Virus record (IMG/VR): IMGVR_UViG_2713896737_000008
Strand: one strand, 5' to 3'
Source of the DNA: a virus
Lineage: Duplodnaviria > Heunggongvirae > Uroviricota > Caudoviricetes
Length of the DNA stretch: 6,503 nucleotides
The position numbers and the translations under genes were made by a program. The notes beneath the pieces were generated by a model. It had not been told where the DNA came from, ran no database searches, and saw only the letters and a list, made by a program, of their open reading frames with translations. Below are positions 1 through 6,503 of this stretch, one piece after another (position 1 is the first letter of the stretch; each line of letters opens with the position of its first letter).

Positions 1-926
1 TTCATGATCCGCACTTTCTGCCGGTGATTTTTGAGCATCCTCCTGAAATGGTGGAAAGCGGGGCTCACCTGCTGATGGAAAACCTCGCCATGGTTAACCC
101 GAATCTCGGTTATTCGGTGGATGAGGCCTTTCTGTACCGGGAGTACCGTAAAGCCCGGGAGGCTGGTGAGGAAGCATTTCGTGGCTTCATGTCAAAACAC
201 GCCAATGTGGAAATCGGTCTTGCCCTGCGTTCTGACCGCTGGGCGGGCGCGGATTTCTGGGAGCAGCAGGGCAGGCGCGTCAGCCTGGACGATATCCTGC
301 AGCGCGCTGATGTGGTGACGGTGGGGATTGACGGCGGGGGCCTGGATGATCTGCTGGGAATGTACGTGACTGGCCGTGACAGGGAAACCCGCGAATGGCT
401 GGGCTGGGGCCATGCCTGGGTGCATGAAACCGCGGTGGTCAGACGGAAGAGTGAGGCATCCCGGTTTCAGGATTTTGTGGCCTGTGGAGACATGACGATT
501 GTCCGTCGGGTCGGGGATGACACGGCGGAAGTGGCGGAGTATGTGCGTCGTATTCATGAGGCTGAGTTACTGGATCATATCGGTATTGACCCGTCAGGGG
601 TGGGGCAGATTCTGGATTCACTGGCGGAAGCCGGGATCCCCGATGAGAGTGTGGTGGGGATAAGCCAGGGCTGGAAGCTGGGCGGGGCCATCAAAACCAC
701 CGAGCGCAAACTGGCTGAAGGGGTGCTGATTCACGGTGATCAGCCCCTGATGGCCTGGTGTGTCGGTAATGCCCGGGTGGAGCCTAAAGGTAACGCCATT
801 CTTATCACCAAACAGGCCAGCGGACGGGGAAAAATTGACCCGCTGATGGCGCTCTTCAATGCGGTGTCCCTGATGTCCCTGAATCCGGAACCGAAAAAGA
901 AAGCGTATGAGGTTTTTTTCATATAA
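1..926 (+). CDS. Terminase large subunit (TerL), C-terminal nuclease domain; 5'-partial, with the reading frame open to the window edge (codons in phase with position 3)
   Basis: The frame containing ORF 24..926 has no stop back to position 3, so the gene starts upstream of the window. The translation carries hallmarks of the RNaseH-like nuclease domain of Terminase_1-type large subunits: 'VVTVGIDGGG...DDLLGMYVTGRD', 'GNARVEPKGNAILITKQ' and the near-C-terminal 'KIDPLMALFNAVSLM'. Stop TAA at 924-926. Recognised from memory. Confidence 0.8.
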   Translation, partial: HDPHFLPVIFEHPPEMVESGAHLLMENLAMVNPNLGYSVDEAFLYREYRKAREAGEEAFRGFMSKHANVEIGLALRSDRWAGADFWEQQGRRVSLDDILQRADVVTVGIDGGGLDDLLGMYVTGRDRETREWLGWGHAWVHETAVVRRKSEASRFQDFVACGDMTIVRRVGDDTAEVAEYVRRIHEAELLDHIGIDPSGVGQILDSLAEAGIPDESVVGISQGWKLGGAIKTTERKLAEGVLIHGDQPLMAWCVGNARVEPKGNAILITKQASGRGKIDPLMALFNAVSLMSLNPEPKKKAYEVFFI

Positions 927-952
927 CCCTGCTCACCCTGTAACCATCATGA

Positions 953-976
953 ACCGCTGCGGCGGTTTTTTTATTT
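953..976 (+). terminator. Candidate weak intrinsic terminator or RNA hairpin between terL and the capsid gene
   Basis: ACCGC (953-957) pairs with GCGGT (962-966) around a 4-nt loop, followed by a U-tract TTTTTTTATTTT (966-977). The stem is short (5 bp), so strength is uncertain. Confidence 0.35.
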
Positions 977-978
977 TC

Positions 979-984
979 AGGAGG
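979..984 (+). promoter_or_regulatory. Shine-Dalgarno sequence (AGGAGG) for the protease-capsid gene
   Basis: AGGAGG lies 5 nt upstream of GTG at 990, which is the first canonical start codon in the open frame after the terL stop. Confidence 0.6.
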
Positions 985-989
985 CTGAT

Positions 990-4503: not shown

Positions 4504-5399
4504 CGGAACGGGAACTGTCCATTATTCGTGCACTGGGCGAAGAATTCTCCACGGTGCTGGCGGATTTACAGCGCACATTTGAGGGGAAGATGGCCGCGCA
4601 GGCACAAGCGTTTGAAGAGAAACTGGCTTCCCTGTCGGCGGTATTACAGAAGCATGTGACGGTGGATGAGGTACATCCGGTTCTGCAGGCGATGGTGGAT
4701 GACGCTGTGGGGACCATTCCGGTACCGCGTGATGGTCGTGATTATGATCCGGATGTACTGCAGCAGGCGGTGAATGATGCGGTTGCGAATATTCCGGTAC
4801 CGGCGGACGGCAAAAGTATCACCCCCGATGATGTGCGTCCGATGCTTGAGCAGATGGTGAAAGAGGCTGTAAGCCATATCCCTGCTCCGCGTGACGGTCG
4901 TGATTATGATCCGGAAGTACTGAAGCAGGCGGTTCTGGAGGCGGTGAATGCCCTTCCGGCTCCGCAGGACGGGCGTGATGCCACGGCACTGGAAGTGCTC
5001 CCCGCTATTGACGATCAAAAATCCTTTCCCCGGGGCACGTATGCCACACACCTGGGTGGACTCTGGCGGGCGTATGAAAAAACGCACGGGATGCGGGGAT
5101 GGGAATGCCTGGTTGACGGGGTGGCGGATATCGACGTCAGCATGACGGATGAGCGGTTGTTCTCTGTGGTGATCCGGCAGAGCAGTGGCCAGTGTACGGA
5201 AAAAACATTTTCCCTGCCGGTGATGCTCTACCGCGGTGTGTTCAGAGCCGGTGAAACCTACCACCCCGGCGATACGGTGACGTGGGGGGGCTCGCTGTGG
5301 CACTGCAACAGTATGACCGGTGATAAACCCGGAGAAGCTCATTCATCAGGCTGGACCCTGGCTGCAAAACGTGGACGGGATGCAGGAGGCGGAAAATGA
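4500..5399 (+). CDS. Repeat-containing protein of unknown function: N-terminal coiled-coil-like segment, tandem Pro/Asp/Gly-containing repeats, C-terminal aromatic-rich globular domain; candidate virion accessory (decoration or fibre-like) protein
   Basis: ATG 4500-4502 overlaps the portal stop (ATGA), with a G-rich SD upstream. Protein-like composition and the same codon usage as its neighbours. Contains two ~54-aa tandem repeats and a C-terminal segment with 'YHPGDTVTWGGSLWHCN...GWTL'. Function is not assignable from sequence alone. Confidence 0.7.
   Translation: MTERELSIIRALGEEFSTVLADLQRTFEGKMAAQAQAFEEKLASLSAVLQKHVTVDEVHPVLQAMVDDAVGTIPVPRDGRDYDPDVLQQAVNDAVANIPVPADGKSITPDDVRPMLEQMVKEAVSHIPAPRDGRDYDPEVLKQAVLEAVNALPAPQDGRDATALEVLPAIDDQKSFPRGTYATHLGGLWRAYEKTHGMRGWECLVDGVADIDVSMTDERLFSVVIRQSSGQCTEKTFSLPVMLYRGVFRAGETYHPGDTVTWGGSLWHCNSMTGDKPGEAHSSGWTLAAKRGRDAGGGK
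4671..4994 (+). repeat. In-frame tandem repeat inside CDS 4500..5399: two 54-aa (162-nt) units, each made of ~25-aa subunits of the type [I/L]-P-x-P-x-D-G-[R/K]-D...V-L-x-Q-A-V-x-[D/E]-A-V
   Basis: Protein: 'VHPVLQAMVDDAVGT IPVPRDGRDYDPDVLQQAVNDAVAN IPVPADGKS...' against 'VRPMLEQMVKEAVSH IPAPRDGRDYDPEVLKQAVLEAVNA LPAPQDGRD...'. DNA: core 4725-4771 (ccgcgtgatggtcgtgattatgatccggatgtactgcagcaggcggt) against 4887-4933 (ccgcgtgacggtcgtgattatgatccggaagtactgaagcaggcggt), offset 162 nt, 3 mismatches in 47 nt. 'attccggtaccg' also recurs at 4716 and 4791. Confidence 0.8.
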
Positions 5400-5722
5400 C
5401 GGCATTACTGACACTGGAAGAGATCAAGGCACATCTGCGTGTTGACCATGACGCGGATGATGACATGCTGATGGACAAGGTTCGTCAGGCTACCGCCGTG
5501 CTGCTGGCCTACATTCAGGGTAGCCGGGATAAAGTGATTCGTGAGGACGGTGAGCTGATCCCGGGCGAGGCATTAACCCGGATGAAGGGGGCTGCCATGC
5601 GACTGACCGGGATGCTGTACCGGAATCCGGATCTTGCTGAGCGGGAAGACCTCGTGCAGGGGGAACTGCCGTTTTCTGTGTCCGTGCTGATTTACGATTT
5701 GCGTTGTCCGACGGTGTTATGA
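5396..5722 (+). CDS. Head-tail connector protein, phage gp6-like (Phage_connect_1 type)
   Basis: N-terminal signature 'LTLEEIKAHLRVDHDADDDMLMDKVRQATAVLLAYI' and C-terminal 'LTGMLYRNPD' are typical of gp6-like connectors. ATG 5396 overlaps the upstream stop (ATGA); AGGAGG lies 6 nt upstream. Stop TGA 5720-5722. Confidence 0.8.
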   Translation: MTALLTLEEIKAHLRVDHDADDDMLMDKVRQATAVLLAYIQGSRDKVIREDGELIPGEALTRMKGAAMRLTGMLYRNPDLAEREDLVQGELPFSVSVLIYDLRCPTVL

Positions 5723-5732
5723 GGAGGGAGGA

Positions 5733-6083
5733 ATGGCAATATCTGCAGGTCGTCTGACACAGATGATAAGTGTTCTGAAGCCGGTGTTAACCCGTAATGC
5801 TGCCGGAGAAATGACGGAAGAATGGGTGTCATGCGGGAAAATTCATGCGGATATCCGTGGCAGGAGCAGCCGGGAGCGGATGCAGTCCGGTGCGGAAATG
5901 GCGCAGGCGGAAATCCGCATCTGGGTGCGCGGTCAGTCCGGCCGGGAAATCACGGCAGCGTCACGACTTCATGTGCTGAGTGGTCCATGGCGTGACCGGA
6001 TCCTGAACGTTGTCGGGCTGCCCGTGCCGGATGCGACCGGCGGGCGTCTGGAAATTCTCTGTCGGCTGGGAGGGGAAAAATGA
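5733..6083 (+). CDS. Head-tail adaptor / head-closure protein (Phage_H_T_join, SPP1 gp16-like type)
   Basis: 116 aa with the family pattern 'RLTQMISVLKPV...GEMTEEWVSCGKIHADIRGRSSRERMQSGAEMAQAEIRIWVR...ITAASRLHV...RILNVVGLPVPDATGGRLEILCR'. GGAGGGAGG SD directly upstream; stop TGA 6081-6083. Confidence 0.75.
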   Translation: MAISAGRLTQMISVLKPVLTRNAAGEMTEEWVSCGKIHADIRGRSSRERMQSGAEMAQAEIRIWVRGQSGREITAASRLHVLSGPWRDRILNVVGLPVPDATGGRLEILCRLGGEK

Positions 6084-6503
6084 TCGAAACCCTGCTGGAT
6101 TTTTCGGGGCTGGAGGACATCAGCCGCGATTTGCAGCTTCTGAGTGGTGCGGAAAATAACCGGGTGCTGCGTGAGGCAACCCGTGCGGGTGCGAATGTGC
6201 TGAAAGAAGAAGTGGTGTCACGGGCACCGGTACGCAGGGGAAAACTTCGCCGCAATGTGGTGGTCCTTTCCCGGTGCTCCCGCGATGGCGGGATGGAATC
6301 CGGTGTGCATATCCGGGGTGTTAATCCGGACACCGGTAACAGCGATAACACCATGAAGGCGGATAACCCGCGCAATGCTTTCTACTGGCGGTTTGTGGAA
6401 ATGGGGACCGTGAATATGCCACCGCACCCGTTTGTGCGCCCGGCATTTGATGTGCGCAGTGAACAGGCGGCACAGGTGGCGATTGCGCGGATGAACCGGG
6501 CCA
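6080..6503 (+). CDS. HK97 gp10-family protein (neck / tail-completion component); 3'-partial, continues beyond the window
   Basis: Not in the ORF track because no stop is reached. ATG 6080-6082 overlaps the upstream stop (ATGA), with GGGAGGGG SD. My own translation gives 'MIETLLDFSGLEDISRDLQLLSGAENNRVLREATRAGANVLKEEVVSRAPVRRGKLRRNVVV...NAFYWRFVEMGTVNMPPHPFVRPAFD', matching the HK97 gp10-like pattern (F-Y-W-R-F-V-E-x-G-T...P-x-P-F-x-R-P-A). Confidence 0.7.
   Translation, partial: MIETLLDFSGLEDISRDLQLLSGAENNRVLREATRAGANVLKEEVVSRAPVRRGKLRRNVVVLSRCSRDGGMESGVHIRGVNPDTGNSDNTMKADNPRNAFYWRFVEMGTVNMPPHPFVRPAFDVRSEQAAQVAIARMNRA

Follow-up and report, generated by a model that had tools for sequence, protein, structure and literature searches.

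Background

In the record of phage HK97, the head and neck genes run in the order terS-terL-portal-protease-capsid-gp6-gp7-gp10, with three separate genes for portal, protease and capsid protein. Another arrangement has been described in prophages of enterohaemorrhagic Escherichia coli (EHEC), where the head-gene organisation of Sp6, Sp9, Sp10 and Sp12 was found by Asadulghani et al. 2009 to be unlike that of lambda (PMC2669165). Here we analyse a 6,503-nt stretch of viral DNA from the IMG/VR record IMGVR_UViG_2713896737_000008 (Caudoviricetes), the whole of which is referred to as the window, and in which the portal gene lies downstream of a fused protease/capsid gene. The window is almost certainly the head-and-neck block from the type of long-tailed lambdoid prophage by which stx1a, stx2c or stx2a and effector genes are carried in EHEC. 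Its gene order is real and has long been known for the Shiga toxin (Stx) lambdoid phages; it marks neither a satellite nor a new element.

Several of these phages have been classified by ICTV, the international committee for virus taxonomy, for which a genus corresponds to roughly 70% nucleotide similarity over the whole genome. The genus Pankowvirus holds five named species (1717, 2851, YYZ-2008, WGPS6 and WGPS8), and BP-4795 belongs to Marienburgvirus. A plaque-forming siphovirus, phi330, with a 55-nm head and a flexible tail of 145 nm, has also been assigned to Pankowvirus (PMC12502783).

The other described system that bears on the window is that of the cf-PICIs, phage-inducible chromosomal islands that form capsids. 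EcCIEDL933, a cf-PICI of 15.4 kb, carries int, alpA, rep, capsid, protease, portal and connector genes and hnh-terS-terL, without tail genes, and the capsid and large terminase (TerL) proteins of cf-PICIs form clades apart from their phage homologues (10.1101/2022.09.08.507074).

Results and discussion

The block in Stx phages and E. coli genomes

Over its entire length the window shares 99.7% identity with the Stx2a-converting phage Stx2_EH2246; with dozens of Stx1a and Stx2c phages the figure is 97-99%, and matches to the window occur in 1252 of 5426 complete E. coli genomes, at up to 15 places per genome. The part that reaches from the end of terL through the capsid gene to the start of the portal gene is collinear, at 93-96% identity, in 1717, 2851, YYZ-2008, WGPS6, WGPS8, BP-4795 and JLK-2012, and over 700-3400 the five Pankowvirus species and BP-4795 reach 93-99.9%. 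Furthermore, phi330 carries the module at 93-96% identity, and the same block is present in Sp6, a prophage of E. coli O157:H7 Sakai. The Pankowvirus phages, BP-4795 and Sp6 share with the window an identical set and order of genes, including the fused head gene (named 'putative major head protein/prohead protease' in the BP-4795 record), an open reading frame (ORF) of 73 aa and a further ORF, here called X, with HNH-terS before the block and a lambda-type tail after it. The differences are allelic only: the number of repeats in X, and whether portal and X are split, with a run of five G (G5), or fused, with six (G6). The order is thus the norm in a well-described phage genus, Pankowvirus, and is found in the Marienburgvirus BP-4795 as well. 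The head module alone cannot assign the window to a genus, because lambdoid phages are mosaic and only 6.5 kb is given.

The flanks were read from eight copies that are 97-99.7% identical to the window, and in all eight a complete lambda-type tail directly follows the block. Upstream of it in Stx2_EH2246 and E. coli C7 lie cI/cro, O/P-type replication genes, Q, tRNAs, stx (in the phage), holin, lysozyme, Rz, HNH and terS; downstream are the tail terminator, major tail protein, chaperones, a 1080-aa tape measure, the M/L/K/I homologues, J, Lom and a tail fibre. Six contigs that encode exactly the X protein of the window, at 97-99.3% overall identity, have the same flanks, with the gp10-like gene followed by gp17, major tail, chaperones and tape measure. 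The copies are embedded in lambdoid genomes of 49-57 kb. A tail and lysis module next door, together with phage-type replication and lysogeny genes, had been named in the first-pass annotation of the window as the sign of an ordinary prophage, and this is what the near-identical copies contain, along with the terS/HNH genes that it suggested looking for upstream.

Some observations weigh on the other side. The tail and lysis genes are known from the 97-99.7% identical copies rather than from the window's own contig, and no compared contig is 100% identical to the window (the best reaches 99.3%). In addition, EHEC genomes hold many defective prophages of this type (PMC2669165), and this particular copy may not yield virions alone.

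Gene order of the window and comparison with HK97

Eight long ORFs with family support were found in the window, all intact and all on the + strand, as are the other features given below. The first is the C-terminal part of TerL, ~307 aa with the nuclease domain (1-926; PF20441, 1.2e-10; phrog_2699, 2e-107); the gene starts left of the window and encodes 553 aa in near-identical loci, where it is complete. Next comes an uninterrupted ORF of 645 aa (990-2927) in which a prohead protease (Peptidase_S78, aa 48-151) is followed by a linker, a delta-like coiled-coil region and a major capsid domain of the HK97 fold (Phage_capsid, aa 386-635); it also matches TIGR01554 (1e-22) and, end to end, phrog_617, 'major head protein' (3.5e-259). 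The 73-aa ORF (2972-3193) separates this gene from that of the 454-aa portal protein (3139-4503; PF04860, 3e-80; TIGR01537, 2.5e-108), after which come ORF X (4500-5399, 299 aa), a gp6-like head-tail adaptor of the Ad1 type (5396-5722; PF05135, TIGR01560, phrog_40), an Hc1 head-closure protein of the HK97 gp7/SPP1 gp16 type (5733-6083; PF05521, 6e-18) and the first 141 of 148 aa of a neck/tail-completion protein of the HK97 gp10 family (6080-6503; PF04883, TIGR01725), whose gene continues past the end of the window. These coordinates and family matches agree with the first-pass annotation in its TerL, its portal, the gp10-like gene at the 3' edge and the protease joined to the capsid protein; the 73-aa ORF and X are two genes that it did not mention.

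Measured against the HK97 record, the portal gene is displaced, as had been claimed. The order terL-protease/capsid-orf73-portal-X replaces the canonical terL-portal-protease-capsid, and orf73 and X are additional genes. Common to both are an S78 protease, an HK97-family capsid protein, a PF04860 portal and neck proteins of the gp6, gp7 and gp10 types. Identity to the HK97 proteins is 75% for the gp10-family protein, 44% for head closure (gp7), 29% for the protease and 28% for the portal, and neither the C-terminal part of TerL nor the capsid part gave a BLASTP match to HK97. His55 and Ser110 of the window protease align with His65 and Ser114 of HK97 gp4, which we take to be the catalytic residues. 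The junction of the head-closure and gp10-like genes, at ~6080, has the appearance of a mosaic joint, with the neck/tail side HK97/lambda-like and the head side from another lineage.

Depth of the synteny

A profile of the fusion protein, scanned against one genome per species, recovered 72 loci, from Enterobacterales (Enterobacter, Citrobacter, Kluyvera, Pantoea, Erwinia, Proteus, Morganella and others), from other Gamma- and from Betaproteobacteria, and from many Alphaproteobacteria. Both the protease and the capsid parts were matched in 54 of them. In 52 of these 54, the same strand carries terL upstream and portal downstream, and the remaining two reach a contig end. A single protease/capsid ORF of at least 630 aa is present in 43 of the 54; in about ten the two parts are neighbouring ORFs, as they are in the Moraxella phage Mcat1. 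Most loci also have a long ORF of tape-measure size downstream. One locus without such an ORF, L073, was considered as a tail-less relative and rejected: head-closure, gp10-like and tail-tube genes are present, followed by inserted accessory genes.

The same order is found in a Klebsiella prophage, in the Rhizobium phage RHph_X2_26 and in Mcat1. Since it has been kept in 52 of 54 related loci across the Proteobacteria, the portal-after-capsid order is an old inherited trait of a lineage. The suggestion that the block might belong to a distinct HK97-like lineage is accordingly sound as a description. As a claim of novelty it falls away, the arrangement being already on record in Stx phages and Sp6.

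The portal/X junction

An ATGA at 4500-4503 holds both the stop of the portal gene and the start of X, and a run of five G lies 12 nt upstream, near the 3' end of the portal gene (4484-4488). Five G leave portal and X separate and six produce an in-frame fusion; the fused proteins in the databases read '...AMFRGDTEKMTERELS...', which requires six. Exact 38-nt queries, designed such that every seed word spanned the G run, located the G5 form at 711 places in 369 complete E. coli genomes and the G6 form at 1336 places in 751, both forms being present in some genomes. The annotation of the phage records is divided in the same way: portal and X are two genes in BP-4795 and 1717, and one gene of 859-861 aa in 2851 and YYZ-2008. 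Of the 53 loci outside E. coli that yielded both genes, 52 have X immediately after the portal gene and one has the two fused. In the Klebsiella relative the ATGA overlap is there too, without a G run, and the portal protein ends in RGLLAK* where that of the window ends in RGILRK*. Because separate genes are the rule outside E. coli and both the overlap and the portal C-terminus match those of Klebsiella, we read the split form in the window as the ancestral, intact state.

Three further arguments about the junction were tried and dropped. phi330, which has six G, was considered as proof that the fusion works and was set aside on account of several other frame breaks in portal and X. The 'defective portal' calls of Asadulghani et al. 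for Sp6, Sp9 and Sp12 were considered as instances of the five-G split, but Sp6 has a fused ORF of 833 aa that ends 80 nt before the adaptor gene. A programmed -1 frameshift, at either the G tract or A_AAA_TGA, would yield precisely the fused protein; it is unsupported, and the Klebsiella relative examined lacks the tract. As for phi330 itself (PV189401.1; L005 3875-6617), its genome was assembled manually from Sanger reads, and the frame breaks in the portal C-terminus and X are as likely to be sequencing errors as mutations.

A satellite-like element in E. coli O157:H7 Sakai

Prophage Sp7 of the Sakai genome (NC_002695.2 1594711-1610171; L017 4711-20171) spans 15.46 kb and encodes an integrase, a primase, a capsid protein of 385 aa, a protease of 190 aa, a portal of 391 aa, two connectors, an HNH-like protein, TerS and, last, TerL; it has no tail genes. 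It is called 'untypable' in its record, and its content, order and size fit those of EcCIEDL933. From size, content and host lineage we infer that Sp7 and EcCIEDL933 are the same element. Its gene ECs_1595, annotated as 'holin', has a Cys/His-rich start and is probably the HNH gene.

Pairwise BLASTP was used to set the window proteins against those of Sp7 and of phages, clade membership being judged from the resulting identities rather than from a tree. For the C-terminal part of TerL, identity is 22% with Sp7 (E 1e-4), 69% with the Klebsiella prophage and 47% with Mcat1, with no match in RHph_X2_26. The protease and capsid parts are 29% (E 0.006) and, over 54 aa, 35% (E 0.002) identical to those of Sp7; the corresponding values are 77% for the Klebsiella prophage, 48% for RHph_X2_26 and, in Mcat1, 46% for the protease and 35% for the capsid. 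The portal is 26% identical to that of Sp7, 67% to that of the Klebsiella prophage, 48% to that of RHph_X2_26 and 45% to that of Mcat1. Head closure is 41% identical between the window and Sp7. The Klebsiella prophage, whose proteins are thus 67-77% identical to those of the window, has tail genes.

Alternative explanations

Could the block be a cf-PICI, which builds small heads and borrows helper tails? The first-pass annotation linked such a layout with these satellites, and in part the link is correct: proteobacterial cf-PICIs also place the capsid gene before the portal gene and use HNH-terS-terL packaging (10.1101/2022.09.08.507074), the protein families are of the HK97 type, and if the cf-PICI order is drawn as a circle, HNH-terS-terL-capsid-protease-portal-connectors, it resembles that of the block. 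The window, moreover, stops before any tail gene. Gene content, context, detailed order and sequence, however, all differ. Every near-identical copy examined has the tail directly downstream and lysis genes upstream in a lambdoid genome of 49-57 kb, whereas cf-PICIs are islands of ~15 kb with int, alpA and primase genes and with no tail or lysis genes. Their linear order is capsid-protease-portal-head closure-adaptor-HNH-terS-terL, with separate protease and capsid genes, and the 15.5-kb Sp7, which has int and primase, likewise keeps capsid and protease apart and its terminase genes last. Nor is the Sp7 portal any closer to the window than the HK97 portal is; with TerL and the capsid part as distant as given above, the block shows little kinship to a group whose capsid and TerL proteins form clades of their own (10.1101/2022.09.08.507074). 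Thus, of the cf-PICI features that were looked for (freedom from tail and lysis genes, a ~15-kb int/alpA/primase island, the proteobacterial order, and capsid and TerL of cf-PICI-like sequence), none was found, and we give the proposal of a capsid-encoding satellite practically no credence. Little is at stake in that question, the block being a well-catalogued part of EHEC prophages. This gene order is unfit for flagging satellites; the presence of int, alpA and primase genes and the absence of tail genes is what separates cf-PICIs. It is equally hard to credit that the order is the outcome of a local and recent reshuffling, in one genome, of a standard HK97-type module. It is indeed unlike that of HK97 itself, but the same order recurs, with proteins 35-77% identical, in Klebsiella, Enterobacter, Erwinia, Proteus, Morganella, Hydrocarboniphaga, Marinobacter, Lampropedia, Mesorhizobium, Devosia and Brucella and in RHph_X2_26 and Mcat1.

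A further alternative, that the module is a decayed remnant in which the portal gene is a frameshifted pseudogene, has existing annotation on its side. The NCBI Prokaryotic Genome Annotation Pipeline (PGAP) labels 3139-5399 as a single 'frameshifted' portal gene in the 99% identical copy of E. coli C7, the records of WGPS8 and F349 give 'portal protein (pseudogene)', the fused six-G frame outnumbers the split one in E. coli (1336 against 711 places), and many EHEC prophages are defective (PMC2669165). These labels are probably an artefact of comparison with the commoner fused references. All eight ORFs of the window are intact, 52 of 53 loci outside E. coli keep portal and X apart, the ATGA overlap and the portal C-terminus of Klebsiella match the split frame, and both forms stand in phage records, the split one in BP-4795 and 1717 and the fused one in 2851 and YYZ-2008. 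We therefore regard decay as improbable, and retain the reading of the window as the head-and-neck block of a lambdoid prophage. The matter has a practical side, in that wrong 'frameshifted portal' labels may lead surveys of prophage intactness in Stx-producing E. coli to call functional head modules defective.

A putative internal start in the capsid gene

Within the 645-aa ORF, an in-frame ATG at 1566-1568 (Met193) opens the coiled-coil, delta-like region and is preceded by a Shine-Dalgarno (SD)-like AAGGA at 1551-1555; it is the putative start of a protease-less capsid protein of 453 aa (1566-2927). In Mcat1, where the capsid gene stands apart, its start codon falls on this ATG in the alignment, and about 10 other loci likewise have a separate capsid gene that begins at this Met. 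The ATG is kept in the Klebsiella and Rhizobium-phage homologues and is present in 70 of the 72 loci. One of the motifs AGGA, GGAG, GAGG or AAGG lies 4-16 nt upstream of it in all 45 non-redundant fused ORFs, against background rates of 12% for the remaining in-frame positions and 11% for the remaining in-frame ATGs; the 45 ORFs are related, so that a nominal p-value overstates their independence. Furthermore, the purine motif is conserved while the amino acids encoded there are not. This pattern has the signature of an internal ribosome-binding site at Met193. Because ATG and SD motif are both conserved, a protease-less product would be expected, which suggests that the capsid protein may also be made as the product of a nested gene.

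Precedents for such an arrangement exist in lambda C/Nu3, HSV-1 (herpes simplex virus 1) UL26/UL26.5 and HFTV1 gp17/gp17.5, all of which likewise have an N-terminal maturation protease and an in-frame internal start inside the protease ORF. In the nested protease/scaffold paradigm, an abundant short product shares the C-terminus of the long one, and the protease is built into the procapsid (bioRxiv 10.64898/2026.09.13.751334). The shared C-terminal part is scaffold in lambda, HSV-1 and HFTV1, whereas here it would comprise the scaffold-like region and the capsid protein itself.

ORF X

The protein encoded by ORF X consists of a long N-terminal helix, 54-aa (162-bp) helical repeats in variable number and a conserved C-terminal beta domain. 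A seed-based repeat finder identified two repeat copies, at 4665-4783 and 4827-4945, with 75% identity; Tandem Repeats Finder returned nothing on the window. Among E. coli relatives the length of X rises in steps of 54 aa (245, 299, 353, 407 and 461 aa). The 140-aa C-terminal domain matched 5375 clusters at the 50% identity level and was always C-terminal in the 150 best matches, mostly in proteins of 200-550 aa. X represents a core gene that stands right after the portal gene across the Proteobacteria, in thousands of prophages.

The families phrog_2271 and phrog_1289, which X matches, are both named 'portal protein', a name that is an annotation transfer from the fused form. Pfam gave CBM_5_12 only, as a marginal match below threshold; short matches to DUF4244, TetR_C_35 and FliG_N were rejected as spurious hits to helical repeats. 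Neither sequence nor profile searches with X as query gave a significant match among PDB chains. An AlphaFold2 model built from an 18-sequence alignment was poor (mean predicted local distance difference test, pLDDT, 57; predicted template modelling score, pTM, 0.27), and Foldseek found no match to it in the PDB at E <= 0.001. The sole consistent matches of the model were local, covering ~48 residues of CBM5/12 chitin-binding domains at a root-mean-square deviation of 2-3 A, a hint that X may have a CBM5/12-like end.

That fusion to the portal is tolerated argues for X being physically associated with the portal vertex. On a bolder reading, X would be an undescribed part of the portal vertex, G5/G6 a heritable toggle in E. 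coli between free and portal-fused X that alters virion composition, and the capsid gene a nested one with protease-tagged and plain products. We think this combination unlikely and offer it tentatively; in the literature searched we found no description of a portal-vertex role for X, of a G5/G6 toggle or of the nested capsid gene. The nested capsid start, the G5/G6 dimorphism and X are leads of modest interest, both for the structural biology of phages and for the annotation of prophages.

A model for assembly

To judge from the gene families, the products of the block and its neighbours could act together as follows. HNH, TerS and TerL would cut and package cos DNA, the HNH and terS genes lying just left of the block in all relatives. 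The 645-aa gene would give rise to a minor, full-length protease-linker-scaffold-capsid chain, which would carry the protease into the procapsid, and to a major product from Met193 with the scaffold-like region and the capsid domain only. Both would co-assemble on the portal, with X as its conserved partner, and the protease would then excise itself together with the scaffold region. The neck, completed by the gp6-like adaptor, head-closure and gp10-like proteins, would join a separately built tail of the lambda type encoded right of the window.

Other features of the window

No Rfam family was found in the window, and a scan for promoters and terminators gave sites no commoner than chance (5 terminator-like sites, against 5.3 in shuffles). 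A GC-rich hairpin followed by a T-run, detected by pattern match at 951-978 within the 63-nt gap between the terL and capsid genes, resembles an intrinsic terminator and is a lead, not a finding. The 73-aa ORF that lies between the capsid and portal genes shares 55 nt with the start of the latter and matches phrog_829 (8e-39), a family of unknown function; an ORF with 40-57% amino acid identity occupies the same position in Enterobacterales relatives.

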